A DNA stretch of 64,000 nt from Chthoniobacteraceae bacterium (GTDB lineage: Bacteria; Verrucomicrobiota; Verrucomicrobiia; Chthoniobacterales; Chthoniobacteraceae): the NCBI GenBank assembly GCA_035997375.1, contig DASYIS010000422.1, forward strand, positions 1,380-65,379. Reading direction: 5' to 3'. The notes beneath the pieces are model-generated. The model saw nothing but the letters and a program-made list of their open reading frames with translations. It was not told where the DNA came from and did no database searches. Shown piece after piece: positions 9,205 through 48,500 of the stretch (its first letter is position 1; each line of letters starts with the position of its first letter). The position numbers and the translations under genes were made by a program.

Positions 9205-9218
9205 ACCCTTGCGCTCCC

Positions 9219-29949: not shown

Positions 29950-30858
29950 TTAAGCGCTGGTGACGCGCTTGATCTGCTGGGCATCGCCCTTCGCGCAGCC
30001 GTAGCTGACCTCGACGATGCGTTTGCCCTTATCGAGGTTCGGGTCGCCCCAAGCTTTGTAGGTGAGCGTGAGGTTGGTCTTCGGGTCGGTGACGACGCGG
30101 TAGTCGCTGAGCTGGCTCATGACCTCCGAGCTCGGCGCGATCGGCGCGTTCGCAATGAGAATGCCGGACTGCAGCGCGGCAACGCCCTTGAGGTTTTCGC
30201 CGTTGGCCGGGAAGCCCGGCACGTCGTAGAGATCGAAGCCGGAGACGCGGCCGACCACGCCTTCGCGCAGGGTCATATCGGAGCCGGAAGCCGACGCGTT
30301 CTTGAGCGCTTGGTCTTTCTTCAACGGCGTCGTGTACGTGTTGTCCAGGATGAGCGCGCGGCCGACGCTGGGCCAGAGGAGCGTGGTGAGGGCCTCATCG
30401 ATGTCGACGATCTCGTCGGAGTCGAAGCCGGCGGCGCCGCCGGTGTAGATCGGGTCGCCGAAGTTGGCCGCGGTGACCAGGCCCAGGATATCGGTGACGA
30501 TGTCCGCGGCGAGGCGGTCGGTTTTCTGCGCCATGCCCTCGGCGAGCACGTCGAGCGGGAGGCCGATGAGCTCCCGGCTGGTGAAGCTGAGGGACTGGTA
30601 CTTGCGGCGGTCGACCGTGACCGGCTGCATGGTCACGTCGAAATCGCCGTCCTCGTAGCCGACGTCCTCGTCGAAATCCTTGGAGGCCATCTGCTCGAGC
30701 GAGATGACGGGAACGCGCACCGTCTTATCCAGCGCGAGGTCGCCCGTCTGGAACGTGTGGGAGAATCGCGTGAGCGGGGCCAGGCGCAGCGCGAGCTGGC
30801 GGATGACCATGTTCAGGATTTTGTCGAGCTTGAGACTGGAGGCGGCGGAGAGGGCCAT
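29950..30858 (-). CDS. Major capsid protein (302 aa)
   Basis: Follows the protease-scaffold as in lambda/HK97-like head modules. 57-nt polypyrimidine leader. Size is typical. Confidence 0.75.
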   Translation of the reverse strand: MALSAASSLKLDKILNMVIRQLALRLAPLTRFSHTFQTGDLALDKTVRVPVISLEQMASKDFDEDVGYEDGDFDVTMQPVTVDRRKYQSLSFTSRELIGLPLDVLAEGMAQKTDRLAADIVTDILGLVTAANFGDPIYTGGAAGFDSDEIVDIDEALTTLLWPSVGRALILDNTYTTPLKKDQALKNASASGSDMTLREGVVGRVSGFDLYDVPGFPANGENLKGVAALQSGILIANAPIAPSSEVMSQLSDYRVVTDPKTNLTLTYKAWGDPNLDKGKRIVEVSYGCAKGDAQQIKRVTSA

Positions 30859-30915: not shown

Positions 30916-32046
30916 TTACCGGGCGGCGGATTGGGCGGCGTCCCAGGCGACGGCCGCGGCGTCGAGCTTGTCGCCGTGCTTGGCGCGCATCTCGGCTTTG
31001 GCGATCGGGTCCGCGGCCTGGTAGGATTCCCAGAGCGCGACCGGGTCGGCCTTGTTGGCGTCGAGGATCTCCGGCGCGTCCTTCTCGGCGGTGATGCCGT
31101 TGCGGGCGAGGCGCTCGAGCTTGCCGTCGGCTTTCGCCTTGGCGGTGACCAGGCCGGCCTTCTCGCTTTCCAGCGCGGTCACTTTGCCCGTCTCGATCGA
31201 GAGTTTGCCGGTGAGATCGGCGACCTTCGCGGTCTCCGCGGTGAGCTTATTCGTCAGGTCGAGCTTGTCGGCCTCGAGCGCGGTGGCCTTGGCGGTCTCC
31301 GCGGTGAGCCTGGCCGTCAGGTCGGTGACCTTCGCGGTTTCGGCGGTGAACTGACTGGTGAGTTGCGCGACTTGCGCGGTGAGGGCGGCGAGATCCATTT
31401 GGGAGGCGGTGGTGTGCGCGTTGGCGGACGCCTCTCCCGGCATGTCAACGGCGGGCGCATTCGCGAAAAGTTTGGTGAGGTCGAAGAAGGCTTTCGGGTC
31501 GGTGACGCGATCGGTGATCTCGTCGACGAAGCCCCATTCCTTCGCCTCGTCGGCCGACAGCCAGGTGACGTCGTCCATGGCCTGCTGGATCTCGGCGGCC
31601 GGCTTGCCCGTCTTGGCGACATAGGCGGCCACGAGCGTGCCCTTCATTTTGTCGAGCAGGTCCGCGGTCTTGCGGAGATCCCCCGCATCCCCAGACACGT
31701 AATTCGCGCTCGGGTTGTGGATCATGAAGAGCCCGTTTTCCGCCATCTTCACCGGCGCGCCGCACGTGCTGAGCAGGGTCGCCATGCTGGCGCAGAGGGC
31801 GTCGATCTGGACGGTGATGCCGCCCTTGTGCCGGCGCAGCGCATTGGCGATCGCGTTGCCCTCGACGACGCTCCCGCCCGGCGAATTGAGACGGAGCAGG
31901 ACGCGCTTGCCGGTGTGTTTCTTCAGCTCGGCGTTGAACGCCTTGGAGCCAACGCCATAGGCGCCGATCTCATCGAGGATGGCGATCTCGACGGAATCCG
32001 CGGCGGCGTTGCGGATGCGGTACCAGGACTGGGCGGGCTCGGACAT
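30916..32046 (-). CDS. Head maturation protease (S49/ClpP-like) fused to a coiled-coil scaffold with a C-terminal capsid-binding-type module (lambda C/Nu3-like)
   Basis: LRLNSPGGSVVEGNAI..MAENGLFMIHNP (S49/ClpP serine protease). TAETAKV coiled-coil repeats. C-terminal PVALWESYQAADPIAKAEMRAKHGDKLDAAAVAWD. Confidence 0.85.
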   Translation of the reverse strand: MSEPAQSWYRIRNAAADSVEIAILDEIGAYGVGSKAFNAELKKHTGKRVLLRLNSPGGSVVEGNAIANALRRHKGGITVQIDALCASMATLLSTCGAPVKMAENGLFMIHNPSANYVSGDAGDLRKTADLLDKMKGTLVAAYVAKTGKPAAEIQQAMDDVTWLSADEAKEWGFVDEITDRVTDPKAFFDLTKLFANAPAVDMPGEASANAHTTASQMDLAALTAQVAQLTSQFTAETAKVTDLTARLTAETAKATALEADKLDLTNKLTAETAKVADLTGKLSIETGKVTALESEKAGLVTAKAKADGKLERLARNGITAEKDAPEILDANKADPVALWESYQAADPIAKAEMRAKHGDKLDAAAVAWDAAQSAAR

Positions 32047-32504: not shown

Positions 32505-33521
32505 TTACGCGGCCTCCTTTTTCTTTTTCTCCGCGGCGGGGTCGACGACGTCTTCTTGCGACGGATCGACGGCCGCTGGAGCGGCGCCGCCGGCGCCGGG
32601 CATGCCGGCGCGCCAGAGCTTGAGCGCCCATTCGGCTTTCATCGCCTTCGCGATTTGCTGGGCGTAGGCGAACTCGCGGAACCACTGCTTGACCATGTGG
32701 CGCCAGCCGCGGCCGCGGCGGGAGTTGACGGAGTCGAGCGTCTCGACGCCGCTGGCGAGCTGGGCGATCTCGGCGAGGGCGTCGCCGCGATCGATGCTCA
32801 TCTGGCCCGGGAGCTGGAACTCGACGTGGTTCATCCATTCGTCGTCGACGTCTTCGACCCAGGTCTCGACAGCTTCGGTCTCCGGATCGGCGGTGAGCGA
32901 CGCGGGGGTGGGCGGCGTGCAGACGCGCTTGAGCGGCCGGCGCAGTTTGCCGGTCTCGATGCGATGCTGCAGGTAGCGGGTGATCCAGGGGCTGCAGAGA
33001 TGGCCGATCTCCGAGTCGCCCATGATCTCGAAGAAATAGCCGGCCTTCTCGATAACGAAGCGCTGCCCGGCGCCGGACAGATCCGCGCAGGCCCAGAAGA
33101 AGTCGCTGCCGGCGCCGCCCAGGGAGGAGAGGCCGTCGCGCATGAGGACATCGCGGATAAACGGCTCGACGAGGGGCGAGGGCGACTCCGGCGTGATGAA
33201 CTTGGCGTCGCCGTTTTCGTCGGTGTAGATGATGGCGCCGCCGCCGGCGAGTTTCTCGTACTGCGCCTGCTCGTTCTTCGGCCCGTCGGGCGGCGGCGTG
33301 GCATCGCCGCCCATGCTCTGGGCGAGGCTGCGGAGCTTGGCCACGCCGCCCTGGCCGCCGGCCTTGACGAGCTTTTTGATGTGGAGACCGATCGAGGAAT
33401 TCTGCTTGGCCGTCTTGGTGACGATGCGGACCAGGTCGCGCGTGTCGCACATGGGGGCGATGGCTTGGGCGAAGTCGGAGGTGCCGCGGACCTGGTTTGC
33501 GCCGTCGGCGTGGTACCAGTG
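32505..33521 (-). CDS. Portal protein (lambda gpB family), C-terminal 338 codons; 5' part displaced by the nested element
   Basis: The frame is open from 33521: HWYHADGANQVRGTSDFAQAIAP-MCDTRDL... It is in frame with the track ORF 32505..33452 and continues the sequence that ends at 43573. Confidence 0.85.
   Translation of the reverse strand, partial: HWYHADGANQVRGTSDFAQAIAPMCDTRDLVRIVTKTAKQNSSIGLHIKKLVKAGGQGGVAKLRSLAQSMGGDATPPPDGPKNEQAQYEKLAGGGAIIYTDENGDAKFITPESPSPLVEPFIRDVLMRDGLSSLGGAGSDFFWACADLSGAGQRFVIEKAGYFFEIMGDSEIGHLCSPWITRYLQHRIETGKLRRPLKRVCTPPTPASLTADPETEAVETWVEDVDDEWMNHVEFQLPGQMSIDRGDALAEIAQLASGVETLDSVNSRRGRGWRHMVKQWFREFAYAQQIAKAMKAEWALKLWRAGMPGAGGAAPAAVDPSQEDVVDPAAEKKKKEAA
33514..33521. 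repeat. Left att core copy TACCAGTG
   Basis: Identical octamer at 43571-43578; the flanks diverge immediately on both sides. Confidence 0.8.
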
Positions 33522-33573
33522 CCGAGGAAATCCCCTAGGAAAACCAATCCGTTCCGGTTTTTGTACCGGTTTT

Positions 33574-35181
33574 TCAGTGCCCGGCTTGCGCGGTCTTCAA
33601 CTCTTTCGGGGTCGTGCCCGCATCGATGCGCACGATCTTCGCGCCATCGGTTTTCTTGGTTTCGCGAATGTCGGCAACGTCCTTGCAGCGATCCAGGTAG
33701 CGCTGAACTGCCTCGGGGTTATCGAGAGGCCAGCCGGCCGCGATCCAATGCTTCACCCGCGCCACTGAAACCTTGTAGGTCGATGCATACTCGGCGGCGG
33801 TCCTTTCGTACTCGCGGCGCTCCAGTTTGGACATGGCCTCGCGGTCGTCCAAAGGCCGCCCTTTGTGAATCCAACGAGCGATGCACTGCGGCGTCACCGC
33901 ATACTCGACGGCATACTCGGCAACGGTTTTTTGGTAGCCGCCTGCGGTGACGGGTTGGAAGCGGTTCGTGAGCGGGTCCCTGGCGCGCAAATTGGCGAAT
34001 CGCATATCTGGCGTGTTCCCAAGCGCGAGGTCCAAAACGCGCGCCGGCTCGGCGGGATGGAGGTTCCAGAAACGGGCCGCGTCAAACTCACGCACGAGCT
34101 GGCGATAATGGCCGAAGATCATGGCGGTGCCGGCGTGCCCCATCTCCAGCGCCAGCTCGGCGGCGTTCTTGAAGTGCGCGAGATGATACGAAGCGAACGA
34201 ATGGCGAAGCGCGTTTTTCGGCCACGCTCCAATCTCCGCCCGCTGACACAACTCGGCGATTCTCAGGTGAATGATTGTGGGCGCCGTCACGACCGGCCCT
34301 GATTCTTGCGCCACCGGCCGTAGCCAAGCGGCGAGGACCGGCTGAATTTTGACCAATCGACGTTGTGAGGTTTTCGACTTCGCCGCGGTCACTTCGATGA
34401 AGCCGTCTTCAAAGTCGACTTCCGACCAATCGAGCCGGCAAATCTCGGCGCACCGCAAGCCGGCAAACGCTCCGATTGCGGCATAGGCGAGCACCTGCGG
34501 GGTGGCGGCTTTGAGCAAGGCTTCGAGCTGGTCCACGGTGAGAATGCCGACGGGCGTATCCTTTTCCTTGAACAGCGCCACGCCCTGCCACGGATTCGCG
34601 GCGGCGTAACCTTGCGTGACCGACCAGGTGAAGAAAGCGGAGAGCCCCTTGGCCTGATGATTCTTCGTAATCGGCTCGCCGGGGAGCTTGTGCAGCCATC
34701 CTTCAGCGTGGCGGGCGGTGATCTCGCTTACCCGCAATCCTTCGTGTGCCTCCGCGAATTTCTTACCGAGGGTTTTCAGGTTCCTGAGATGGTCCGCCGA
34801 CACCCGCAGTCTTCGCTTCACGTCGAGATAAAGCGCGAAGGCTTCCGCGATTGAGAGGCTCGCCGCCTGTTGCTTCAGATGCGCCAATAAGAAGGCGGTG
34901 GCATCGTTGATCGTCTTTTCATAAGGGGAGAGCCTGGCGTGGCAATCCTGAGCCATGACGCGCAACCAGGATGGGAAGCTGAGAACCTCGCGGCCTTGGT
35001 TTAGCAGCTCTGTTTCGCGCTGTCGCGCCCACGTTTCGGCCTCTTTGCCCGATGCGAAGAATTTCAGTTTCTCCTTCCCGGCTTCATCCTTCCAAGCGAC
35101 CAACGCTTTTAGATGCGGGCGATTCGCTAGTTTGCACTTGCGAACCCGATACGATGACTTGCTCATGATGTTTGGAAACAA
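33574..35181 (-). CDS. int: Tyrosine recombinase/integrase (535 aa) with two extra C-terminal HTH modules
   Basis: Catalytic signature GLRCAEI (R), ALRHSFAS (HxxR), GHAG..IFGHY (H..Y). C-terminal repeats TVAEYAVEYAVTPQCIARWIHKGRPLDDREAM and TAAEYASTYKVSVARVKHWIAAGWPLDNPEAV. Confidence 0.9.
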   Translation of the reverse strand: MFPNIMSKSSYRVRKCKLANRPHLKALVAWKDEAGKEKLKFFASGKEAETWARQRETELLNQGREVLSFPSWLRVMAQDCHARLSPYEKTINDATAFLLAHLKQQAASLSIAEAFALYLDVKRRLRVSADHLRNLKTLGKKFAEAHEGLRVSEITARHAEGWLHKLPGEPITKNHQAKGLSAFFTWSVTQGYAAANPWQGVALFKEKDTPVGILTVDQLEALLKAATPQVLAYAAIGAFAGLRCAEICRLDWSEVDFEDGFIEVTAAKSKTSQRRLVKIQPVLAAWLRPVAQESGPVVTAPTIIHLRIAELCQRAEIGAWPKNALRHSFASYHLAHFKNAAELALEMGHAGTAMIFGHYRQLVREFDAARFWNLHPAEPARVLDLALGNTPDMRFANLRARDPLTNRFQPVTAGGYQKTVAEYAVEYAVTPQCIARWIHKGRPLDDREAMSKLERREYERTAAEYASTYKVSVARVKHWIAAGWPLDNPEAVQRYLDRCKDVADIRETKKTDGAKIVRIDAGTTPKELKTAQAGH

Positions 35182-35380
35182 AAAGTCCGTGTCCCGGAAG
35201 GCAGAAACCTTCTCGCGCCGAGAATCACCAAGGCGCTATCCAGGACACGGACTTGATTCTCTGTTTTCAATTGTTCGCCCCCGGCCGGTTGATTACTCCG
35301 CGAGGTTGAGACGTGCGCGGCCACCGTTTCTGCGATGCCCGAACTTTGAGAATAGACGATGCGCATCGGCGAAGGGAAGC

Positions 35381-35575
35381 CTACATTTCGCGCACCGTCA
35401 CCTTGGCGAGAGCGGCCTGCACGGCCTGCCAGCTATAGCGCGCGCATTTGCTCCCGAGTTTCACGACCGGAATCAGTCGGCGCGCCTGCATCTTTTTAAC
35501 CCCAGAGACGCTCAACTTGAGACGTTGGGCGAGTTCCTCAATGGTCAAAAATTCTTGGGTGGCGGCGGTGCTCAT
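35381..35575 (-). CDS. xis: Excisionase/MerR-type HTH DNA-binding protein (64 aa)
   Basis: FLTIEELAQRLKLSVSGVKKMQARRLIPVVKLG is the typical excisionase-family HTH. Located directly upstream of int. Confidence 0.75.
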   Translation of the reverse strand: MSTAATQEFLTIEELAQRLKLSVSGVKKMQARRLIPVVKLGSKCARYSWQAVQAALAKVTVREM

Positions 35576-35973
35576 CTAGCCGAGCTGGCGGTGTCAACGG
35601 GAGCCGGTGGGTACCGTGGGGAATTCAGAAAATCTCGCGTTGTGAGCAACGTGTGAATTGACCGGCAGTAGCCGGCGGGCGTAATGTCGCGTCGGCTGCG
35701 GCACTGTGCGTGCGGTGGCCCGCCATCTCAAACGTCGGACTTGTCACCCGTCGAAGGCGAACATGGGAGACGCGCGCCATCCGGCGCGTTGCCTCCCGGT
35801 CAGAGAAACAAAGGCCGTTCCCGATAGCCCTGGGGGTGACTCCCTGGGGTGAAAAACGCACAGTTTCGGGGGCGGCCTTTTTTGTTTCACACGATCGAGA
35901 ACCCAAAACCGCTCCCGTAAAAAACGAAAGCCCGTGTTGCAAGCACGGGCTCTCGAAAAGGGACTCAACTACG

Positions 35974-36465
35974 ATGAAGAACCGTAATCTGACGGTTGGG
36001 AATGTAATTCCCAGCCTCGGCACCGCAAGAGAAATATCGCTGCCCGCAACGCTGCCCGGAAGGCAGTCTGAGCGTCTGGAATCCGTTCCGGCCCGCGAGA
36101 AAGTCACCCTCAAAGCGCCGGGCGTTCCGCCTGGCAGCTCACCCATCCCCCCGCGCAAGGTTGTGCGGCTCGCGATGCCCGGCCGCCCTGTCGCCCCTGT
36201 CGCCATCCTCGCGGATCGCGAGGGGGTTGCCGAGGTTGGCGCGCCGGCCGCTCCCGGAACGTGCGAGCGCTGCGGGGAAACCGCTGCTGGCCTCCTCTGC
36301 CCGGCATGCACGAATGACGCGCCGCCGGCCGTGCGGCTCGCGTTTGGTCAAGCCGTTGGCATCGATGCGATGCGGGCGGCGGTCGAACGCGTGCGCGCGT
36401 ATGCGCGGCCCGCGGTCGTGCGGCTCACGATGCCCGGCCGGCCGGCGGAAGGGAGGGCAGCATGA
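35974..36465 (+). CDS. Hypothetical protein with a CxxC..CxxC zinc ribbon and a duplicated VVRL(A/T)MPGRP motif (start uncertain)
   Basis: CERCGETAAGLLCPAC. ATGA overlap with the next + strand ORF. The upstream part of track ORF 35710.. looks non-coding. Confidence 0.4.
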   Translation: MKNRNLTVGNVIPSLGTAREISLPATLPGRQSERLESVPAREKVTLKAPGVPPGSSPIPPRKVVRLAMPGRPVAPVAILADREGVAEVGAPAAPGTCERCGETAAGLLCPACTNDAPPAVRLAFGQAVGIDAMRAAVERVRAYARPAVVRLTMPGRPAEGRAA

Positions 36466-37079
36466 AAAAGAGCGAACGTTCGCCGTTCGAAGACGAGCTG
36501 CTCGATGACGAGTGGTGCGACAATCACCCTTGGCTCGAATACCGCTGCGATTCGGTCGCCGGCAGTCTCCTTTTGCTGCGTGGCCGCAAGATCGAAATCC
36601 GGTGGGTTTTCCAAATGGAAAACTTCAAGAATGAAGGCGACGATGAGCAGTACTTCAGAGGGCTCGCGTATGATCGGCTCGGCAGGTTCTACGCTGTCGT
36701 GGAGGAGGACTTGTGCACCCACCCGAAACGCCGGATTTGCGGTGTGAAGAAACTCAACGGAAAGCAGGCGCTCACGTGGTTCGCGCGCAACGCTTGCTGG
36801 GATGCGGCTTTCACGCGCGAGATGTGCCGCGCGATCGACAATCCGGGATTCGAGTTCGTGTCACTCGTGCCCGGCCGGCGCGCCAAGGGCCGCAAGGCCA
36901 CGAAGAAGGCGGAGGCGTTTCACGAGCAGCTCCACCTTGCGACGGCGCTGGTGGAGTGTGTGCGCAAGTTGGACGCGGACCCGACGCTCGCAAATCTCGG
37001 CGAGGCGTGCCGCTCGGCGAGCAAGGTCCACCAGGCGTTGCACGAACCGGCGAACTTCAAGCGCGCCGGCCAAGCGTAG
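36462..37079 (+). CDS. Hypothetical protein (205 aa), lower GC than its surroundings
   Basis: Clean ORF followed by a strong hairpin terminator. No family recognised. Confidence 0.6.
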   Translation: MKKSERSPFEDELLDDEWCDNHPWLEYRCDSVAGSLLLLRGRKIEIRWVFQMENFKNEGDDEQYFRGLAYDRLGRFYAVVEEDLCTHPKRRICGVKKLNGKQALTWFARNACWDAAFTREMCRAIDNPGFEFVSLVPGRRAKGRKATKKAEAFHEQLHLATALVECVRKLDADPTLANLGEACRSASKVHQALHEPANFKRAGQA

Positions 37080-37085
37080 GAAAAG

Positions 37086-37130
37086 AGCCGGCCGGCGCCA
37101 CCATGGCGCCGGCCGGCTGGTCCTTTCTGA
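37086..37130 (+). terminator. Rho-independent-type terminator (15-bp GC stem AGCCGGCCGGCGCCA/TGGCGCCGGCCGGCT, 3-nt loop, T-rich tail)
   Basis: Read directly from the sequence; lies 7 nt after the stop at 37079. Confidence 0.6.
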
Positions 37131-37306
37131 ATTCTGAATTTCCCCGCCTGCCGGCGTCATGCCGAGGCGAACGCCAGCGCGATGCGCCGGCTGCTCTTTG
37201 AAAACCGATAGATGCGCGCTCGAAAAACCGGGCTGCCCCTCCGACTGCGGAAAGCCGCGACGAGGGAGGCAGAGTAAATAGGGAGCGCATCGGACGCCGG
37301 GCGCAA

Positions 37307-39457
37307 CTATTGAAAGACGGCGGACCCTGTCACTTTCAGAACCGGCGGCGGATTGGTCAGGAGGTTCCGGTTTAGAGTTTCGATCGACGAAACGATCTTC
37401 TCGAGCTTTGCGGTCTGCCGCTTCGTTTCGCTCAAGAGCGGGCTGGCGCTTCCGGCCGCGAGGTTGCTCCCGCCAATCCGGCGGTCTGCATCGGTGGAAC
37501 CGCTTCGGCCTTTTTTGCCGTCGCCCTGCGCGGCTTCCGCCTTTGCGAACTCAGCGGCTTTCGCCTTAGCCGTGTCCGGATCGAGCCCGCCGAGTATCAG
37601 CTCCTTGAGCTTTGCGCGCTCTTTGCCCTCGATCTCCAAACGCTTCGCCTCGCCGGTGTCGCCCCGCACGCGTGCCCACATGATCTTGGTGTCACGCTCA
37701 ACGGATTCCTCGAGGTCTTTGCTCTTGGCGTCGCGCTCAACGCTCACATGGCCGACCGCCTTTTCCCGCGCAGCGGCCGGGCTGTCGCCGTTCTCTTCAT
37801 TGCGACGCGCGAGTAGGTGAATTTCCCTCTCGCGTTCGGCGGCGCTCTGGCCGGCGGCATCGCCCGCGGCCTTAGCGCCCAGGATGTTCATTTCGTCGGC
37901 TTGATCCGCCGCGTACTCGGCACGCTTCCGCTGCTGTTCAGTGCTTGCTTTTTCGAGTCTCAATAGCTCCTTTCGATTCTCGATCAGCTCCTGCAAGTGC
38001 GCGACCTCGGGGGCGGTAAGCCCGCCGGATTCGCCCCGCGCGCGATCCTTTGCAATAGTGGCGTCTAGCGCCTCGGTGGAATCAACGCCGGAGTCGGCGA
38101 GGATCTTCCGCTTTTTTGCCTCGGGATCTCGATCCTCGAAACTCGCTTTCTTTTTCTCGCGATCCAAGTCTTCTCCCGCTTTCTTCACTTCCTTTTGCAA
38201 GTCCAGAAGGCGCTTGGCGTCCTGCTCTGCTTCGAGGGCCGCGTCGCGTTTGGCCTTGCGGTCCGCCAGCGTTGCCGGCGAAAGACGCGCGAGGATTTTC
38301 TCGAACATTTCCAGCGACTTCGCCCATTGCCGGTACTTGTCCGCCAACTGCTCCACTTCATCCGGCTGGAAAAGTGCGTCCGCATTTTCCTCCGCATGCT
38401 TGAGCGCCTCCGCGACTTCCTCCGCTTGTTTTTCCAGCGCCGTCATGGCCTGCGCGCGCTCCTTTTCCGTGGCGACATTTTCGATCTGCTTCGCGGCGGC
38501 CCCGAGCCCGACCTGGCTCGCCTCGTCAGGTTCCGCCATCGCGGCTTCCTTGCGGCCGCTCGTTATGACGTAATCAGCGAGTCCAACGGCCGGGATGAAT
38601 CTCCGCAGCGCTGGCGGCAATTTGAACACGGCCGAAGCGAGGGAAAGCTTGGCCATGGCATCCGCCGCGATCGCGACGGATCGGCCAAAAGGCACGAGGT
38701 CCACTTTGGCGAGGTCCTGCACCATGGCCAGCGTCCCGCCCGTCACTTCGTGGCCGGTGAATCCAACGTAAAATTGATCCAGCTTCAGCGTCATGGCGCC
38801 GATCGCGTCTGACGCGGCGTCAAAAGCGGAAGCGTTTTTCTCCAGCTCGTTGCCCAAGCTCCCAACCTGTCCGCGCGCCTGCGAAAACGCTTCGGAATCG
38901 GAAAGCAGCGCGAGCATCTTCGCGCCGGATTTGCCAAACAAATCCATGGCGTAGCGCGCGCGGTCGGTCGGGTTGGCGACGCCCTTGAACGCGGCCTGCA
39001 AGGTGACGATTTGCTGAAGCGCCGTCATGGACTTCAGCGCTTCAAGTGAAACGCCGAGCTGATCGAAAACTTTCTTCGTCGGCTCCCCCTGCTCGTTGAG
39101 CCCCGTGAGGGCGCGCGAAAGAATGGCGAGCGTAGGGCCAACGCTATCCGCGCCCAAGCCGGCGTTTTTGAACGCCTGCCGCAGAACCACCAGGTCCGCG
39201 ATAGATTGGCCTGTATTGGCGGCGAGGTCCGTGAACGCGCCGCCCATCTCCAGCGCCGCCATCAAGTGTTCGGCCTGTCCCTTGATCAGCTCGAATCCCC
39301 TGGAGACCACTTCCCCGGCGACGGCGAACCCGGCAAAGCCTTGGGCGAATTTCGTGAACTTGTGCTCGGCCGTCTCGATGGAACGGCTGACGGAATTGAT
39401 GCCGGCGAGAAAATTCCCGTAGCCCAACTGCATCTCGACTTCGATTTTCTGTCCCAT
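37307..39457 (-). CDS. Second tail tape measure protein (716 aa), paralogue of 21897..24047
   Basis: Start at MGQKIEVEMQLGYGNFLAG (39457). Collinear with TMP1 (FAVAGEVV, AFKNAGLGADSVGPTLAILSRAL, DLFGKSGAKMLALL, ending SAVFQ). Identical length. Confidence 0.85.
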   Translation of the reverse strand: MGQKIEVEMQLGYGNFLAGINSVSRSIETAEHKFTKFAQGFAGFAVAGEVVSRGFELIKGQAEHLMAALEMGGAFTDLAANTGQSIADLVVLRQAFKNAGLGADSVGPTLAILSRALTGLNEQGEPTKKVFDQLGVSLEALKSMTALQQIVTLQAAFKGVANPTDRARYAMDLFGKSGAKMLALLSDSEAFSQARGQVGSLGNELEKNASAFDAASDAIGAMTLKLDQFYVGFTGHEVTGGTLAMVQDLAKVDLVPFGRSVAIAADAMAKLSLASAVFKLPPALRRFIPAVGLADYVITSGRKEAAMAEPDEASQVGLGAAAKQIENVATEKERAQAMTALEKQAEEVAEALKHAEENADALFQPDEVEQLADKYRQWAKSLEMFEKILARLSPATLADRKAKRDAALEAEQDAKRLLDLQKEVKKAGEDLDREKKKASFEDRDPEAKKRKILADSGVDSTEALDATIAKDRARGESGGLTAPEVAHLQELIENRKELLRLEKASTEQQRKRAEYAADQADEMNILGAKAAGDAAGQSAAEREREIHLLARRNEENGDSPAAAREKAVGHVSVERDAKSKDLEESVERDTKIMWARVRGDTGEAKRLEIEGKERAKLKELILGGLDPDTAKAKAAEFAKAEAAQGDGKKGRSGSTDADRRIGGSNLAAGSASPLLSETKRQTAKLEKIVSSIETLNRNLLTNPPPVLKVTGSAVFQ

Positions 39458-39530
39458 AATTTTTGGTGTTGGGCTACGGCCCGCCCTGTGGGGGCTGTCA
39501 ACTCCGGCGGCGGAGCCCCGCCACGGAACG

Positions 39531-39564
39531 AAAAACCCCGTCCCCTCACACCGAGGGGACGGGG
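39531..39564 (-). terminator. Hairpin terminator upstream of the element's tape measure gene (12-bp stem CCCCGTCCCCTC/GAGGGGACGGGG followed by TTTTT on the minus strand)
   Basis: Read directly from the sequence; located in the 156-nt gap between 39614 and 39457. Confidence 0.55.
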
Positions 39565-39613
39565 CTGGACTCGAAGGCCGGCGGCGCAACTCGCCGACAC
39601 CTTCGGCGGCGTG

Positions 39614-40357
39614 TCAATGAATCAGGCCGTCGTCGTCGTCAGTCCACGCGCGGAGAGCTTTGCGAAACTCCGGCCCCTTGTCGGGGAACTTGGCGAGCAA
39701 CTCCAGCGCCTTGGCCTGGCGGCGCTGGTCGTAGGTTGTGCGGGGCGCGGCCGGCGCGGCGATCGGGGCGATCGGGGCGAGCGCCATCGGCTTTTCCAAC
39801 AAGGCGTCTCCGAAGTTTAACCCGGCGATTATCAGCGGCGGCTGGACGTTGGCGGCGATCTGGCGGCCGGCAAGGTCCGCATCCGCGAGCCATTCCTCCA
39901 GAGACAAAAGTGAACCGCTCGGCTCGTGGACAATCCCGAGCCGCGCGGCCGTCTGCAGCTCCTGCGCGCGCAGGGTCTCGGCTTCCTTTCCGATGAGCTC
40001 GAGGATCTTCGCGCGGATCTCAGCGTGGATTGGTTTCGCTTCCCTGTCGATGGCCTGCAACTGCTCTTTGCAGAGCGCGCGCACGGCTTGGCCGCGCTCG
40101 TGGTGGAGTTGGTCGGGAATCACGGCGCCCTCCACGCGGGCCGCATTTTCCGGCGACGGGTCTTTGCGGAATTCCTCGCGGGCCGCGTCGAGTTCCACAT
40201 CCTTTTTTCGTGTGGCGGCCATCTGCCTTTGGAAGCCGTTGAAGCGTTCGGCGAGCTGGCGGAGCGCGGCGATCTGCGGGGGGCTGGCGACGCGGGCGAG
40301 GCGGCCGGCGATGAGGTGACGGAGGCTGGCTTTGGGGTGGGAGGCGCGGAAGTTCAT
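39614..40357 (-). CDS. Hypothetical protein (247 aa), coiled-coil-like
   Basis: Operon orientation inside the element. No family recognised. Confidence 0.65.
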   Translation of the reverse strand: MNFRASHPKASLRHLIAGRLARVASPPQIAALRQLAERFNGFQRQMAATRKKDVELDAAREEFRKDPSPENAARVEGAVIPDQLHHERGQAVRALCKEQLQAIDREAKPIHAEIRAKILELIGKEAETLRAQELQTAARLGIVHEPSGSLLSLEEWLADADLAGRQIAANVQPPLIIAGLNFGDALLEKPMALAPIAPIAAPAAPRTTYDQRRQAKALELLAKFPDKGPEFRKALRAWTDDDDGLIH

Positions 40358-40381
40358 TGGTGGGGGAATTCGGGAATTGGG

Positions 40382-40690
40382 CTACTCGCCCTTGGCGCGA
40401 TCGTAGGCGACGGCGGCTTCATCCAGACGGTTGCCGAGGCGGGCGTGCATTTCGTTTTTCTCGACCGGGCCAGCGGCCAAGTAGGATTCCATGACCGCGA
40501 CCAGGTCGGCCGGCGCGGTGGGTTCGGCTTGGTCGGCGGTGCCCTTTTCGCAATCGTAGGCGGCAGCGGCGGCATCGAGGCGCGGGCCTTCTCGATCGCG
40601 CATTTCGTTTTTTTCGACCGGGCCAGCGGCCAAGTAGGATTCCATGAGCGCCACAAGGGTGGCGTGCTCTGCGGTGGGGGCTTGTGTCAT
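40382..40690 (-). CDS. Small protein (102 aa) made of two tandem copies of the scaffold C-terminal module
   Basis: LVALMESYLAAGPVEKNEMRDREGPRLDAAAAAYD and LVAVMESYLAAGPVEKNEMHARLGNRLDEAAVAYD. ATG at 40690 with AAGGAGG upstream. Confidence 0.7.
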   Translation of the reverse strand: MTQAPTAEHATLVALMESYLAAGPVEKNEMRDREGPRLDAAAAAYDCEKGTADQAEPTAPADLVAVMESYLAAGPVEKNEMHARLGNRLDEAAVAYDRAKGE

Positions 40691-40713
40691 TGCCTCCTTG
40701 CCGGGGGTGTCAA

Positions 40714-41664
40714 TCACCAGCCCTCCAAGGCGCGATCGTAAGCGACGGCGGCTTCATCCAGTCGCTTGCCGTGGCGCTCCATCAGTGCATTTTTTTCGAG
40801 CGGGCCAGCCTTCAAGTAAGACTCCATGAGGGGGACCAGGTCATCTCCCCCCGCGCGGGAGAGGGTTTCGGGGGAGTCTTTCTCGGCGGTAATGCCATTG
40901 CGCGCCAAGCGCTCCAATTTGCCCTCCGCACGGCCTTTGGCGGCCGTGAGTGCGGTAATCGTTCCGTGAGCGGTGGCGAGGGCCGCGCGCGCGTCGGCGA
41001 GCTGGTTTTGAAAGTCCGTCGCTCTCGCCTGCCAATGCTGCCAAGAGGTCGTGGCGATCGTCTCGGGAGGTTTGGAGCGCGGAGCGTTTTGAAAGCTGGA
41101 AAGATCGAAGCTGTTCTTTGTCGTCACGCGATCGGTGATTTCATCGATGAACCCTTGGGCTTTCGCTTCCTCCGCGGTGAACCAAGTTTCGGCGTCCATC
41201 ATGGCGGCGATTTCCGCGGCCGGAATCCCGGTCTTGGCGACGTAGGCATTGACGAGCTGCGCCTTGATTTTGTCCATGACCTGCGCGGCCGTGCGCATTT
41301 GCTCCGATCCGCCCTGCGCGGCGCCGCTCGGATTGTGGATCATGAAAAGGCCGTTTTCCGCCATGCGGACGGGCTTTCCCACCATGGCGAGATAGCTCGC
41401 CATGCTCGCGGCCATGCCGTCGATTTGGACCGTCACGCCTGGCTTGTGGCGCAGAAGGGCGTTGTAGATCGCGTTCCCTTGAATGACCGACCCGCCCGGC
41501 GAATTGATGCGGAGATTGATCCGCTTTTCGCCATAGGTCTTGAGCGAGGCGAGCATCGCGATCGCGGTCTGAGCGAACGAACCGATTTCGGCGTAGATGA
41601 ACAGGTCGACGACGCCGGCGTTGTTTTCGATCGAGTACCAGGATGAGGGCGAGGGCGCGGGCAT
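40714..41664 (-). CDS. Element-encoded S49/ClpP-like head protease-scaffold (316 aa), paralogue of 30916..32046
   Basis: LRINSPGGSVIQGNAI..MAENGLFMIHNP..GKLERLARNGITAEKD..LVPLMESYLKAGPLEKNALMERHGKRLDEAAVAYD. The track start at 41685 is the TTG of a TTGACA motif. Confidence 0.85.
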   Translation of the reverse strand: MPAPSPSSWYSIENNAGVVDLFIYAEIGSFAQTAIAMLASLKTYGEKRINLRINSPGGSVIQGNAIYNALLRHKPGVTVQIDGMAASMASYLAMVGKPVRMAENGLFMIHNPSGAAQGGSEQMRTAAQVMDKIKAQLVNAYVAKTGIPAAEIAAMMDAETWFTAEEAKAQGFIDEITDRVTTKNSFDLSSFQNAPRSKPPETIATTSWQHWQARATDFQNQLADARAALATAHGTITALTAAKGRAEGKLERLARNGITAEKDSPETLSRAGGDDLVPLMESYLKAGPLEKNALMERHGKRLDEAAVAYDRALEGW

Positions 41665-41681
41665 GCGCATCTCCGCGCCTG

Positions 41682-42569
41682 TCAACCGCCGGTGCGGACA
41701 GGTATTATTGGCTGCTCGGGGTGCAGGGCGGCGTAAGCTTGGTCGATATAGGCTTTTCGCTCATCTTCGGGCAGGCGAAAGAAGCCGTCCTCATCCTCCT
41801 TCCCCGCGAGTTTCCACGCCGCGCTCTTCGTTCGTTCCACGTCGGCCCAGATGGCTTCGTCGTCGTGGTCGATCAGCGGGGGCCGTGCCGCTGGCTCTTC
41901 TTCGCCATAGATAGGCGGCACCCATCCCGGAATCATGGCCTGCGCCGTCGTTCGGCACTCTTTGTCGAAACCCCTGATAACTGCATCCGTTTCCGCCTCG
42001 AGGATTTCCTCGAGCTGGTCTTCATTGGACGCGCCGCTGAGCTTTCCGGGGAGACGGCCCACCATCGCTTTGACGCGAGCACGCAGGAAGCCGAACACGC
42101 GCGCGGAGAAGGTCTCAACTGCTACCACCTCGACGGTGCGGTCGTTGGCCTTGCGAATGGCCGGCGCGGCGATCTCCTCTTTGCGGAGCTGCTCTTTGAT
42201 GGCGAGCCATTCCTTGGAGAGGAGAAGACGCGTTTGAGCCAAGCTGCCATCGGTCTTTGAGGCTTCCCAATCCCGCCGCGCTTCATCCTCGGCGAGGCGC
42301 AAGGCGGCGAGCGGATCGGACGGGCGCGGAGCGGGCGCGGCCGTGCCGGCGGCCGGCGCGGGCGCGGGCGCGGCTGCTGCCGTCGGCGGCTGCTTGCGGC
42401 GGTTCTGCGCGTCCACGATCGCGGCCGTGCCGTTTGTGATTCGGCCATTGGCGGCGCGCCATTCTTCGGCCGCTTGAAGGGACGTGAGCGGCATGCCGCG
42501 TTTGACCAGGCGACCGACATTCTGTTGGGAGCAGCCCCATTCACGGGCCAGAGCATTTTGCGAAATCAT
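41682..42569 (-). CDS. Terminase small-subunit-like DNA-binding protein (295 aa)
   Basis: N-terminal HTH LAREWGCSQQNVGRLVKRGMPL, an Ala/Pro linker and a helical C-terminal part. Same architecture as the helper TerS and preceded by the shared cos-like sequence. Confidence 0.6.
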   Translation of the reverse strand: MISQNALAREWGCSQQNVGRLVKRGMPLTSLQAAEEWRAANGRITNGTAAIVDAQNRRKQPPTAAAAPAPAPAAGTAAPAPRPSDPLAALRLAEDEARRDWEASKTDGSLAQTRLLLSKEWLAIKEQLRKEEIAAPAIRKANDRTVEVVAVETFSARVFGFLRARVKAMVGRLPGKLSGASNEDQLEEILEAETDAVIRGFDKECRTTAQAMIPGWVPPIYGEEEPAARPPLIDHDDEAIWADVERTKSAAWKLAGKEDEDGFFRLPEDERKAYIDQAYAALHPEQPIIPVRTGG

Positions 42570-42634
42570 TGCGCCCCAGGCGCAGAGTCAACGGGGGGTA
42601 CAATGGGTACAACCTACAACCTAAGCTTTTTTGG

Positions 42635-42765
42635 GAATTCCGCGTGCGACAAGGCCGGGGGAGCTTGCAACCGCTCGCGGGGGGGGTGCCCCTAGGAGAC
42701 TCCTTAGCCGGGGGGGTGCCTAGGTGCGGCCATGCCGCGCGCAGGTGCCCCGTGGCGGCCTGGCT
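42635..42765. repeat. Copy A of a roughly 130-bp sequence shared with 48364-48500 (candidate cos/pac or late control region), flanked by GGTACAAC/GTTGTACC repeats
   Basis: GCGTGCGACAAGGCCGGGGG.GCTTGCAACCGCTCGC..GGGGGGTGCCC..AGGAGACTCCTTAGCCGGGGGG aligns between the two loci with few mismatches. Confidence 0.7.
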
Positions 42766-42886
42766 GGCCACAAGGCCGGGCTGTAATCTCTCTCCCTACA
42801 ACGCTTCGCGAGCATTGTACCGTTGTGGAATGCGCGCCAGCGTTGTACCCCCATGCGCGCCCGTTCTCGCCTTCTGGCTTGGCGTG

Positions 42887-43147
42887 CTACATCAGCTCGC
42901 GGAAGGCGAGGGCGAGCCGGTCGAGCTCGCCGGCTCTATCGATCAGAGCCGGCGTGAGCTCGTCCACTCCCAAGACAATCTGGCGTGTGATGTCCACGGC
43001 CTCACGGATCAAGCCGGCCTCGGTTGAAATGGTTTCGCGGTCGTCGCCTCTGCTTCGCTTGAACCGCAGGAAGCCGAGCGCCAGAGCGCCAGAGAACACG
43101 CAACGGCGTGAGGTTTCCAACACCACCTCTTCTTCTTCCGTGCTCAT
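42887..43147 (-). CDS. Small hypothetical protein (86 aa), paralogue of the next gene
   Basis: Start at MSTEEEEVV (43147). C-terminal VDELTPALIDRAGELDRLALAFRE resembles VKDLTPAMLHRAGELQTLAEEFRE. Confidence 0.55.
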   Translation of the reverse strand: MSTEEEEVVLETSRRCVFSGALALGFLRFKRSRGDDRETISTEAGLIREAVDITRQIVLGVDELTPALIDRAGELDRLALAFRELM

Positions 43148-43374
43148 CGGCCAACCTCCCGGAATTCTTCGGCGAGAGTTTGCAGCTCGCCGGCGCGGTG
43201 GAGCATGGCCGGCGTGAGGTCTTTGACCGCGATGATTTCCGAGCGCTCGGATTCGATCCAGGCGGCGGCGATCAGCGCGCGCGAGGCGGTGAGCTCGCGG
43301 AGTCTTTGAAGGCAGGCGCGGCCAGCGGCGAGCGTGTGCGCGCTGGAATTGAGGAGGCGGGTTTCGAGGTCCAT
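43144..43374 (-). CDS. Small hypothetical protein (76 aa), first gene inside the right end of the element
   Basis: AGGAGG plus TTGACA upstream; ATGA overlap with its paralogue. Confidence 0.55.
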   Translation of the reverse strand: MDLETRLLNSSAHTLAAGRACLQRLRELTASRALIAAAWIESERSEIIAVKDLTPAMLHRAGELQTLAEEFREVGR

Positions 43375-43417
43375 TTGCCTCCTGCCCTACTGTCAACGCT
43401 CCAACAGCCAAAACCGC

Positions 43418-43443
43418 AAAAACCGGGACCGTTCCGGTTTTTT
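43418..43443. terminator. A/T-flanked hairpin AAAAACCGG-N7-CCGGTTTTTT (bidirectional terminator-like) near the right end of the element; contains CCGTTCCGGTTTTT, also present at 33549-33562
   Basis: Read directly from the sequence. Confidence 0.5.
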
Positions 43444-43569
43444 GGTGTTCGCGTGGGTACTTCAGGGTCCGCGACGGGACTACCCGCCTCTTCCCGCCAA
43501 TCCGCTGGAAGCCTGATGAACACAGGCTTCCAGAGTAAATGGCCCCTCTTCCCGGTTCCCTACTTGCTA

Positions 43570-44211
43570 TTACCAGTGGATTACCTGGGCACGCGGGATG
43601 CGCGTGAAGGTGTTGTCGAGGCCGCGGACGTGGATCGCGACCATGCAGTGGTTGTTGTCGAGCTCGATACCGTCGACGATGAACGGGTTGCTCTCGGCGG
43701 ACGGCGGCGACATGACCTCCGAGGCGTCGAAAAGCTGGATGCACGGGGCGTCTTCCCAGCGCGGATTCGGTACGATGGCGGCGAGGAATTCGCCCTGCTT
43801 CACGCGGGCCTGGGGCGCGAAGGTCTGGATCTCGTAGCCGTTGCGCCGGCCGGCGAGGTCGCAACGATCGGGCGCGAGCATGTAGCACTCAACGTCGGCC
43901 TCGGCCTCGGCGTTCCAGGCTTCATCGTCGGTATTGAGCGCGAGATAGATCCCCTTCCCCACGACGTAACGGGCGATGCCGCGGACGGCTTCCTTGACGA
44001 TGCCGAAGTTCTGGAAGAGCCACTCGACGCGGAAGTTGATCTGCTGCCGCGTCCAGGACGGGAGATACTGCCGGGTGTCCGCGTTTGGAAAATAGAAGAT
44101 CGACTGGCGATCGGGCGTGTTGCTGACGGCCTCGGCGAAGGGGCCCCACGCGTTGACGAAGCCGAGCATGGCGCCGGCGGCGGCGCTTTTGAGCGTCTGA
44201 AGGAACTTCAT
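43570..44211 (-). CDS. Portal protein (lambda gpB family), N-terminal 213 codons, truncated by the nested element
   Basis: Follows the gpW-like gene as in lambda. Ends ..RIPRAQVIHW-TAA exactly at the core repeat. Normal portals are about 500-550 aa. Confidence 0.85.
   Translation of the reverse strand: MKFLQTLKSAAAGAMLGFVNAWGPFAEAVSNTPDRQSIFYFPNADTRQYLPSWTRQQINFRVEWLFQNFGIVKEAVRGIARYVVGKGIYLALNTDDEAWNAEAEADVECYMLAPDRCDLAGRRNGYEIQTFAPQARVKQGEFLAAIVPNPRWEDAPCIQLFDASEVMSPPSAESNPFIVDGIELDNNHCMVAIHVRGLDNTFTRIPRAQVIHW
43571..43578. repeat. Right att core copy TACCAGTG
   Basis: Identical to 33514-33521. It supplies the codons His-Trp and the TAA stop that truncates the portal N-fragment. Confidence 0.8.
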
Positions 44212-44215
44212 GGGA

Positions 44216-44494: not shown

Positions 44495-44516
44495 GCCCCG
44501 GCGGCCGAGTCAACGG

Positions 44517-44880: not shown

Positions 44881-45294
44881 ATGAACACCCTTGGAGGCGT
44901 GTCAATGAGGTGCTATCGATCGGCCGTGCATCATCTCACGGTAGTATTGACCGAAGGCGGTGAGATTCTACCAATCACGGTGATGGTGAGATTATACCAA
45001 TCACCGCCCCCGCAAACCGCCTCGCTGATTACCAAAGAGCTGGGCCTCGGGTGCGCGCATTGCGGAGGCGACATTGGAGAAGTCGGCTACACAAAAGACG
45101 GCCGACCGATTGAATGGATCTGCTGCTCCCCGCTGTGTTGCCTGAAATTCGACGAGCGGAATCTGACGATGGCGATCTTCCGGAACCTGAAGGTGGTCTG
45201 GGGTAAGCTCGCTGCAGGAGCCGCCACGGGAATTCCGTCTGGCGGTACCGCGGCGGCGGGAGCGCGAGGGCGAACTCGAACTGGTCGATCATGA
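44881..45294 (+). CDS. Possible Cys-rich protein on the opposite strand (137 aa) in a lower-GC 0.5-kb gap
   Basis: CAHCG..WICCSPLCC. It overlaps two 20-nt direct repeats, so the region may instead be regulatory. Confidence 0.3.
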   Translation: MNTLGGVSMRCYRSAVHHLTVVLTEGGEILPITVMVRLYQSPPPQTASLITKELGLGCAHCGGDIGEVGYTKDGRPIEWICCSPLCCLKFDERNLTMAIFRNLKVVWGKLAAGAATGIPSGGTAAAGARGRTRTGRS

Positions 45295-48363: not shown

Positions 48364-48500
48364 ATTCCGCGAATGCCGCGTGCGACAAGGCCGGGGGGGC
48401 TTGCAACCGCTCGCCTGGGGGGGGTGCCCAGGAGACTCCTTAGCCGGGGGGTGTACGCAGGCGCGGCAACGCGCGCGTAGGAGCCCCGTGGCGCGCCGTT
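48364..48500. repeat. Copy B of the shared roughly 130-bp cos-like sequence, flanked by GTGCCA/TTGGCAC repeats
   Basis: See copy A. Located immediately upstream of the helper terS. Confidence 0.7.

Follow-up and report, generated by a model that had tools for sequence, protein, structure and literature searches.

Introduction

Satellites that reside inside the late genes of a helper prophage are known as helper-embedded phage-inducible chromosomal islands (HE-PICIs; Tommasini, Mageeney & Williams 2023, PMC10111431), and they are the closest described counterpart of the locus reported here. This locus lies on contig DASYIS010000422.1 of a Chthoniobacteraceae bacterium (assembly GCA_035997375.1), of which positions 1,380 to 65,379 of the forward strand, 64,000 nt in all, were analysed; this whole stretch is called the window, coordinates below are window positions, and L-numbers (L001, L007 and so on) denote the other contigs and loci that were compared with it. 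In the window, a 10,057-bp element with its own integrase (33522-43578, one core copy counted) interrupts the lambda-family portal gene of a prophage, and we consider it probable, at roughly 0.77, that the insert is a helper-embedded phage satellite living in the portal gene of the prophage it exploits. The satellite reading is structurally well supported and functionally plausible, with excision and packaging deduced from sequence.

The published HE-PICIs number 491 and are inserted in nine lambda-cognate late genes, where 14 sites were mapped and one more is putative; the portal sites are at positions 38, 227 and 241 of the Phage_portal_2 profile, with a putative fourth at 21. It was determined experimentally in E. 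coli that after mitomycin C the composite of prophage and satellite excises and replicates first, and that the satellite then excises precisely. HE-PICIs have a 258-bp cos segment in common with the helper (90% identity), they capture late genes, and they have off-target chromosomal relatives (PMC10111431). In the available part of that source, the elements of the supplement are from Enterobacteriaceae, the main text adds Arsenophonus, and a limit to Enterobacterales is stated only for the related fis PICIs. As HE-PICIs, portal insertions included, were published in 2023 (PMC10111431), the window shows a known kind of system, and the statement of a preliminary description of this DNA, made from its letters, that no satellite was known in the portal gene of its helper does not hold. 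The term helper-embedded PICI was not found applied to another phylum in our literature search.

Host chromosomes, too, have genes that an integrative element keeps split until it leaves precisely at a certain moment (regulated gene integrity), as with the skin element in sigK of B. subtilis and the comK prophage of Listeria; these interrupt host genes for developmental or infection programmes of the host, whereas the gene split in the window is part of a second mobile element. P4, the satellite of P2, resembles the window element as a cos-type satellite of ~10-11 kb that shares the cos of its helper and needs the helper's capsid, tail and TerL (for the window element this is predicted), but P4 integrates at a tRNA gene and has a primase-helicase and the external scaffold Sid, of which no homologues were found in the window element. 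In the Staphylococcus aureus pathogenicity island SaPI1, CpmB has a C-terminal helix-and-hook like that of the helper scaffold, with which it contends for the capsid protein, and small capsids are the consequence (Dearborn et al. 2017, PMC5644958). The window element likewise has a small protein with the C-terminal module of the helper scaffold, and its own TerS, although SaPIs are chromosomal, pac-type and from Firmicutes, and the likeness here (111-aa tandem modules, short protease-scaffold) comes from sequence alone. The marine elements known as VEIMEs (virion-encapsidated integrative mobile elements; Eppley et al. 2022, PMC9618062) are small integrase-bearing satellites integrated in bacterial genomes outside the range of classical hosts, Verrucomicrobia genomes included, and insertion in helper late genes is not mentioned for them in the available part of that paper. 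Finally, capsid-forming PICIs are recognised by their own capsid, portal and head-completion proteins; the window element has no capsid or portal gene, while one relative (L007, see below) has a capsid paralogue.

Results and Discussion

The portal gene is split at an invariant motif

The same octamer, TACCAGTG, stands at both junctions of the insert (33514-33521 and 43571-43578), and in portal sense it reads CACTGGTA. On one side the N-terminal portal fragment of 213 aa ends with ..RIPRAQVIHW and TAA, and on the other side the C-terminal frame, open to 33521, reads HWYHADGANQVRGTSDFAQAIAPMCDTRDL, with the opening residues HWYHADGANQVRG... The first element base past the core is an A (43568-43570; ~2582-2584 in L012), by which CAC TGG TA is continued to a TAA stop, and because of this element-supplied A the N-terminal fragment ends cleanly at Trp213. 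When 33522-43578 is removed in silico, a 1,650-nt open reading frame (ORF) results that encodes an in-frame portal of 549 aa, with a single PF05136 (Phage_portal_2) stretch across aa 213 (aa 54-338, profile 22-314, 121 bits at a cut-off of 32.9 bits, E 6.9e-35). The element contains no portal-like sequence and no replacement copy of the portal gene end. The empty attB junction obtained in silico is ..GGCGTGGTACCAGTGGATTACC.. / ..GCCGTCGGCGTGGTACCAGTGGATTACCTGGGCAC.., and the attP junction of the circle is ..CTTGCTATTACCAGTGCCGAGG.. / ..CCCTACTTGCTATTACCAGTGCCGAGGAAATCCCC...

A search with the rejoined portal in a collection of ~5.8 billion protein sequences gave 30 relatives, 38-58% identical and mostly from Chthoniobacter and other Verrucomicrobiota, which are 511-577 aa long with a coverage of 89-100%, leaving aside the C-terminal fragment of the window itself and an incomplete protein of 329 aa. 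Both halves align colinearly with uninterrupted relatives of 520-577 aa, over 96-100% of the rejoined protein, and H212 and W213 are invariant columns in the motif IHWYxADxxNQVRG. Conservation extends to the DNA at the His-Trp codons: among 18 intact related portal loci with 38-58% protein identity (17 from IMG/VR plus ENA/Logan L180/L181; L197 could not be assessed by motif search), CACTGGTA is exact in ten and agrees in 7/8 bases in eight. All 17 related IMG/VR portals are uninterrupted. We take it that the integrase recombines the core with the codons of the invariant His-Trp-Tyr/Phe motif of lambda-family portals, and that the element therefore resides in the portal gene.

Most of this had been anticipated in the preliminary description, namely the octamer at both junctions, the two portal halves with their ends, their in-frame fusion once one repeat is removed together with the insert, and an attB that is a conserved portal motif. 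It had also recommended a BLAST search for related prophages with an uninterrupted gene, and had stated that precise excision would rebuild an intact portal and that the helper cannot make virions until the element excises; both statements are supported, and morphogenesis of the helper necessarily depends on this excision.

The junctions also recur outside the window. attL (C-terminal fragment plus integrase) is present on three further contigs, L001-L003 (JGI 3300035671, Logan SRR11678566 and JGI 3300041409), and attR is present on the JGI contig L174, where the portal N-terminal fragment lies between TerL and the element. These four contigs are 99.98-100% identical to the window.

Attachment-site architecture

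The 14-mer CCGTTCCGGTTTTT occurs exactly twice in 64 kb, at 33549 and 43429, while 0.01 occurrences are expected; in the circular form its two copies would flank the core like arm-type sites. Near the right junction a TTCCAGAGTAA box overlaps a hairpin, and the arrangement TTYCAGAGTAA-N31-33-8-bp core is common to the window, L012, L007 and L011. A role as outward promoter was considered for the box and rejected, since in the window and in L007 the box is oriented differently with respect to the gene that is split.

Read in the direction of the portal gene, the core is followed by a 32-bp spacer, the TTCCAGAGTAA box (in reverse orientation) in its hairpin, a terminator-like hairpin with CCGTTCCGGTTTTT, two small ORFs, a 126-bp block shared with the helper, and then the genes for the TerS-like, protease-scaffold, 111-aa, 247-aa and 716-aa tape measure protein (TMP)-like products. 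At the integrase end come the 205-aa and 163-aa ORFs on the other strand, the HTH_17/excisionase-like gene, the 67-aa ORF, the integrase, two tandem copies of GTNCCGGTTTTT and the second core. Ten of the 12 element ORFs (integrase, excisionase-like and late-gene-like) are co-oriented with the portal, and only the 163-aa and 205-aa ORFs are opposite. The GC content of the element is 62.8% compared with ~66% in the flanks, and at third codon positions (GC3) it is 0.73-0.83 compared with 0.87-0.92.

Cargo of the element and its likeness to the helper

Protein families were assigned with Pfam and PHROGs, and paralogues within the window with BLASTP. The TMP copy equals the helper TMP in length, with 54% identity over all 716 aa. 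The protease-scaffold copy (45% identical to that of the helper) is without ~57 aa of repetitive coiled coil, and keeps the GKLERLARNGITAEKD segment and a C-terminal module of ~40 aa. This module returns in tandem in the 111-aa protein, whose two copies are 55-63% identical to the C-terminus of the helper scaffold over 30-40 aa and 69-74% identical to that of the element's own scaffold. The TerS-like copy is 39% identical to helper TerS in its C-terminal 83 aa only, and its N-terminal, DNA-binding part is different.

At the DNA level, the best match between element and helper is the non-coding block of 126 bp with 87% identity, in comparison with 64-70% for the coding paralogues. It lies ~65-190 bp upstream of the TerS-like gene in both copies, with unrelated DNA on its flanks, and it includes AAGGAGTCTCCT and the core CCCCCCGG-TAAGGAGTCTCCT. 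In the intact relative L180 this core again precedes the TerS-like gene, at a distance of ~120 bp, and L182, L184 and L185 have it as well; it is present near the integrase-distal end of the L010 element, and in a diverged form in L004. Between this core and the TerS-like gene, repeats of the GGTTGTA type in the element stand against TGGCAC/TGACACC repeats in the helper (compared by eye). The shared block is probably a cos site, and with a TerL of the GpA type the simplest interpretation would be a shared cosN-like core with element-specific binding sites for TerS. The two fully bounded elements (10,057 and 10,062 bp) have different cargo, and their sizes hint at a packaging constraint.

As a separate observation, four or five iteron-like repeats GAATTGATACCCTG...ATGACACCCTG surround the diverged cos-like core of L004 (~300-900), upstream of the first genes.

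Genes for TerL, portal, capsid and tail were not found in the element by Pfam, PHROGs or BLASTP, and genes for lysis, immunity or replication were not recognised either. The 205-aa protein has no sequence match in PDB, its AlphaFold model is poor (pLDDT 61) with a best Foldseek match to PDB at E 0.39, and the alignment of its family found no relatives in IMG/VR; for the 247-aa protein there is no match in Pfam, PHROGs, PDB or PADLOC. The PADLOC scan of the ORFs without assigned function found no defence genes, and an Rfam scan of 33000-44500 found no family at gathering score, P4-type immunity RNA (C4/isrK) included, which several HE-PICIs have. The preliminary description had named an integrase, an excisionase, a TerS-like protein, a protease-scaffold and a tape measure protein, a motif shared by both ends (CCGTTCCGGTTTTT) and a terminator-like hairpin inside the right end (43418-43442 and 43505-43533), and it had read this cargo, with no TerL, portal, capsid or tail genes, as that of a satellite dependent on this prophage; the gene content and features were confirmed, and they fit such a satellite. 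All features are listed in Table 1.

Table 1. Features of the embedded element and of its helper prophage in the window, in order of position.
Feature	Position	Strand	Basis or remark
tRNA-Asn beside hisB	9919..9993	+	left edge of helper prophage
Helper tape measure protein (TMP), 716 aa	21897..24047	-	annotation and BLASTP
Helper major head protein	29950..30858	-	family annotation
Helper ClpP prohead protease-scaffold fusion	30916..32046	-	Pfam/PHROGs
Helper portal, C-terminal part, 338 codons	32505..33521	-	frame open from core; first own start codon at 33452
Left core copy TACCAGTG	33514..33521	.	integrase-side junction; portal codons H-W-Y
Embedded element, 10,057 bp	33522..43578	-	bounded by cores
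Tandem arm-type repeats GTTCCGGTTTTT/GTACCGGTTTTT	33549..33574	+	28-53 bp from core; left repeat within 14-mer shared with 43429
Tyrosine integrase, 535 aa by longest ORF (530 aa as called in L001)	33574..35181	-	PF00589, phrog_1
67-aa ORF between excisionase-like gene and integrase	35163..35366	-	73% identity with part of the L007 element (37 aa)
64-aa HTH_17/excisionase-like protein	35381..35575	-	weak match; kept beside integrase in L007, L004, L010, L013
163-aa ORF, divergent from excisionase-like and integrase genes	35974..36465	+	ORF
205-aa family-marker protein	36462..37079	+	homologues beside integrase in L012, L010, L013, L004, L007, L176
Bidirectional terminator-like hairpin, 15-bp stem	37086..37118	.	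between convergent 205-aa and TMP-like genes
Tape-measure-like protein, 716 aa	37307..39457	-	54% identical to helper TMP; ORF open to 39589
247-aa protein directly upstream of TMP copy	39614..40357	-	31% identical to L004-element protein
111-aa protein, two tandem scaffold C-terminal modules	40382..40717	-	candidate competing scaffold
ClpP-type prohead protease with C-terminal scaffold domain	40714..41685	-	45% identical to helper copy
TerS-like protein, 295 aa	41682..42569	-	C-terminal part 39% identical to helper TerS
Candidate cos block, non-coding	42635..42757	-	87% identical to 48371-48493; core CCCCCCGGCTAAGGAGTCTCCT
Two small ORFs, 86 aa (42887-43147) and 76 aa (43144-43374)	42887..43374	-	ORFs
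A-run/hairpin/T-run, bidirectional terminator-like	43418..43442	.	contains second CCGTTCCGGTTTTT
11-bp-stem hairpin (43505-43533) overlapping box TTCCAGAGTAA	43505..43538	+	box 32 bp from core
Helper portal, N-terminal fragment, 213 aa	43570..44211	-	ORF; ends ..RIPRAQVIHW, then TAA
Right core copy TACCAGTG	43571..43578	.	junction beside portal N-terminal fragment
Helper TerL (GpA ATPase and nuclease)	45289..47496	-	annotation
Helper TerS-like gene	47493..48323	-	annotation and BLASTP
Helper copy of cos-like block	48371..48493	-	DNA comparison

The integrase and its relatives

The window integrase matches PF00589 with 44.6 bits (cut-off 27.1 bits; E 1.8e-11) and phrog_1 with E 2.2e-31. Its catalytic residues R243, R326, H349 and Y359 are invariant in our alignment A2, and the nine long-type integrases that A2 includes have Asn where an HxxR box usually has its first His. 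Relatives number ~1,200 and are mostly Verrucomicrobiota integrases of ~380 aa; about ten integrases of 517-565 aa have a C-terminal extension with two repeats of the form Y..YxV....I.KW...GxPLDDxEAM. These repeats resemble the N-terminal helix-turn-helix (HTH) of helper TerS (window 33574-34000, aa ~409-496, compared with 48180-48323; also in L004 and L007). The long integrases form one clade in a neighbour-joining tree of residues 30-385 only, calculated without support values, in which the integrase of 11capE, the founding HE-PICI, is a distant outgroup. Scans of GTDB genomes and IMG/VR with the integrase alignment returned only short relatives of ~380 aa besides the L007 contig, and no further long-type integrase.

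Related integrases are found in late genes of other phages. The preliminary description had recommended searching for the element in other portals, and L012 provides such a case: its integrase is 53% identical, and the N-terminal fragment of its portal (49% identical) ends with ..RMIHW-TAA, at the residue where the window portal is cut; the core TACCAGTG is identical, and the box is 33 bp off. In L007 (integrase 43% identical) an element of 10,062 bp (within 1650-11719) splits a protease-capsid fusion gene, and joining at the 8-bp repeat TATTCCAC restores an ORF of 648 aa with PF05065 as one stretch across the junction. This element carries a capsid paralogue and, in the TMP position, a 766-aa protein that has no family match and no BLAST match to the TMPs of the window. 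L011 has a TerS and a TerL 57% identical to that of the window, the latter cut after ..MHDFFN so that only the ATPase domain is left, followed by the box and the integrase; the other junction is beyond the contig end. In total, four of nine clusters with context are located in late genes, and three different genes are involved (portal, capsid and TerL). The occurrence of related integrases in a second portal, in a capsid gene and beside a truncated TerL strengthens the satellite reading. The claim of the preliminary description that this is a site-specific integrative element with a conserved portal motif as attB is supported, and is likewise strengthened by L012, L007 and L011.

Other elements of the family (L176, L004/L005 and L010) are flanked by chromosomal or non-phage genes. 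L004 and L005 had been considered as the same integrase with different flanks, which was rejected, as their DNA is 100% identical and only the gene calls differ. Integrase, excisionase-like protein and 205-aa protein make up the common backbone of the family, and the late-gene cargo varies.

Three further observations concern these integrases and their contigs. TerS-like HTH repeats on the C-terminus are an unusual domain fusion for a tyrosine integrase. The contig of L011 encodes at 4697-5434 a Bro-N/ANT antirepressor-type protein; domains of this class are usual in the "Bro zone" that enterobacterial PICIs have, and the window element is without them. In L109 (~9800-9890) a relative of the short type lies beside the 3' end of a tRNA gene, with the same TTCCAGAGTAA box only a few bases from the tRNA, which suggests that the late-gene-targeting clade descends from tRNA-targeting integrases.

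Comparison with HE-PICIs

The window element is similar to HE-PICIs in several respects: a late gene is disrupted and restored only by excision, with a short identity block at both ends; insertion is in lambda-like phages, into genes for portal, capsid, terminase and protease; and a cos segment ~90% identical to that of the helper (here 87%, for a putative cos), helper-derived late genes and chromosomal relatives are present. As in the HE-PICI class, there is an own tyrosine integrase and a (weakly matched) directionality factor near the terminus, the size is 10 kb, and the element is incomplete as a phage.

The differences begin with the host, since the window is from Verrucomicrobiota and the HE-PICIs are from Enterobacterales. 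The integrase of 11capE, of a P4-related clade, and that of the window are 24% identical over 147 aa; an N-terminal Arm-DNA-bind_3 domain is present in the former and absent in the latter, which has the C-terminal twin TerS-like HTH instead. Next to the 11capE integrase there is a Phage_AlpA protein (PF05930, E 2.8e-15), whereas the 64-aa protein of the window matches only HTH_17, and weakly. In HE-PICIs the attP motif tgTGTATTGCantgTGTATTGCa is doubled, with copies near -81 and +132; the window element is without TGTATTGC (the single match in the window is at 11126), and its attP has instead the TTCCAGAGTAA box 32 bp from the core and the CCGTTCCGGTTTTT repeats. Of the four zones of HE-PICIs, the integration zone has the integrase at the upstream end and aiming inward, and it is followed by the Bro, replication (primase/SSB) and late zones; the window integrase is at the downstream end and directed outward, and primase, single-stranded DNA-binding protein (SSB) and Bro-N gave no Pfam or PHROGs match among the ORFs of the window element. 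The portal site in the window is ~25 and ~40 aa upstream of the HE-PICI sites 227 (..RLSDIKDY) and 241 (..QSAIVKA) and in one conserved stretch with them, as mapped by eye. Own TerS and TMP genes are a further difference. By these sequence characters the window element would belong to the functional class of helper-embedded satellites, and it lies outside the HE-PICI clade in the strict sense.

Proposed mechanism and alternative explanations

To hypothesize, induction would activate the composite of prophage and element, the excisionase-like protein and the integrase would excise the element, and the portal gene would thereby be repaired. The helper would then provide TerL, portal, capsid and tail, while the TerS of the element may steer the TerL of the helper to the cos that the element carries. 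Competition with the helper scaffold could come from the short scaffold and from the tandem scaffold-tail protein, with the consequence of small capsids suited to ~10 kb, and the resulting particles would carry the element into cells with a related prophage, where the conserved portal motif would serve as attB.

Several points weigh against the satellite reading. It does not account for a full-length tape measure protein, no replication gene was recognised among the element ORFs by Pfam or PHROGs, and five element ORFs obtained no assignable function from the Pfam, PHROGs, PDB and PADLOC searches. The calls for TerS and the excisionase are weak profile matches plus synteny and paralogy (the excisionase-like protein reaches 23.9 bits for HTH_17, below the cut-off of 27 bits, and E ~1e-3 for phrog_66/7735). 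The hairpin inside the upstream junction could block passive read-through of helper late transcription, unless this is antiterminated, and family members differ in where the integrase lies, and in which direction it points, with respect to the att arm. The right end and the integrase of the helper lie outside the window, and the helper may be incomplete. Moreover, the four assemblies with the occupied site represent one near-identical population, and therefore demonstrate no evolutionary persistence, mobility or independent events, although they confirm the junctions. A restored 549-aa portal with at least 90% identity was not present in the 5.8-billion-protein collection. Metagenome contigs were scanned with a degenerate attB/attP/attL/attR pattern and then with the plain left half of attL/attB (an exact pattern of 22 nt), and nothing was obtained, not even the attL that is present in the JGI contigs L001 and L003; the collection is thus evidently without those samples, and this result is uninformative and not readable as absence.

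Some of these points could also be explained by a dead scar, that is, by site-specific integration after which the element and/or the prophage became immobile and the split portal was fixed in a decaying prophage. The missing restored portal or empty site of this phage, the occupied copies that are all ~100% identical and from one population, and the right end of the helper that is not in the window would agree with such a scar, as would the truncated appearance of many HE-PICI helpers (PMC10111431). It seems nevertheless unlikely, as the ORFs of the element and the late ORFs of the helper are all intact with coding-type GC3, the portal halves are without stops or frameshifts, the two cores are identical, the catalytic residues of the integrase are conserved, and the cos-like block was held at 87% while the coding paralogues drifted to 64-70%.

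The insert might also be a nested defective prophage, the remnant of a second related temperate phage whose late genes are left over from a deleted morphogenesis module, given that the cargo follows the late-gene order of the helper (TerS, protease-scaffold, ..., TMP) with 39-54% identity and that an outward-pointing integrase at the element end is a prophage pattern (PMC10111431). We regard this as very unlikely because of the similar sizes within the family and its common integrase, excisionase-like and 205-aa backbone with differing late-gene subsets, and because no lysis, immunity, replication or tail genes are left. In addition, the shortened scaffold and the tandem-module protein look like adapted proteins and not like debris, and TerS has its own DNA-binding end, with flanking repeats beside a conserved cos core.

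It is hardly credible that the insert mainly locks virion production as a switch for the host or the prophage, with its own transfer as a secondary matter. Packaging and capsid-assembly genes and a cos-like site would be superfluous for a mere lock, relatives are also located in chromosomal sites, and no defence genes were found by PADLOC, even though portal function strictly needs excision and chromosomal genes with switches of this type are known (a topic of PMC10111431). An assembly chimera of two unrelated contigs inside the portal gene, against which the preliminary description had advised a check, has nothing in its favour beyond the general risk of metagenome assembly and a negligible probability, and it was rejected, since attL on L001-L003 and attR on L174 come from different samples and assemblers, the direct repeats of 8 bp at the junctions are exact, and insert removal restores the frame.

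A helper-embedded satellite in the portal gene is therefore the reading that we prefer, and the case is best filed as helper-embedding of independent origin, in the distant phylum Verrucomicrobiota and by means of another integrase. A broader proposal would be that soil and freshwater Verrucomicrobiota have a second lineage of helper-embedded satellites, independent in its evolution, in which a twin-HTH integrase was repeatedly retargeted (portal, capsid, terminase) and a conserved tape-measure (plus chaperone-like) cargo re-equips helper tails to inject helper lysogens; we put it forward tentatively and as a whole find it doubtful. One speculative part concerns the TMP copy, which might let particles enter helper lysogens despite superinfection exclusion, because attB exists only in helper-carrying cells and these may exclude superinfecting helper.

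Significance

Until now, the documented helper-embedded satellites came from a single order of Gammaproteobacteria and had integrases of a single clade. Here, an unrelated integrase lineage of Verrucomicrobiota has come to the same solution, by which invariant motifs of portal, capsid and terminase genes are targeted and a candidate cos of the helper is carried together with diverged late genes. This suggests that living within the morphogenesis genes of the helper is a recurrent strategy and not a peculiarity of E. coli phages. As the portals look "split", helpers of this kind will be labelled defective by prophage prediction and annotation. The box-spacer-core attP, the twin-HTH integrase and the tandem scaffold-tail protein provide handles for work on integrase retargeting and on the control of capsid size.

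The helper prophage and minor observations

The helper prophage fills the rest of the window from tRNA-Asn/hisB and continues beyond the right end of the window. Its minus-strand late genes include tail genes in addition to those in Table 1, and its early region has ParB-like, Dam methylase and HerA-like genes. In the same early region there are a DNA polymerase beta-like nucleotidyltransferase fragment (53617-54237) and a ParB-domain protein of 670 aa (51608-53620). The helper scaffold domain (31100-31400, aa ~225-300) contains tandem repeats of ~11-14 aa, LTAETAKVxDLTxK, which are mostly missing from the element copy. Outside the prophage, a partial chromosomal ORF (163-1191) encodes a helicase/nuclease-type protein with AAA_12, REase_MTES_1575 and WGR domains.

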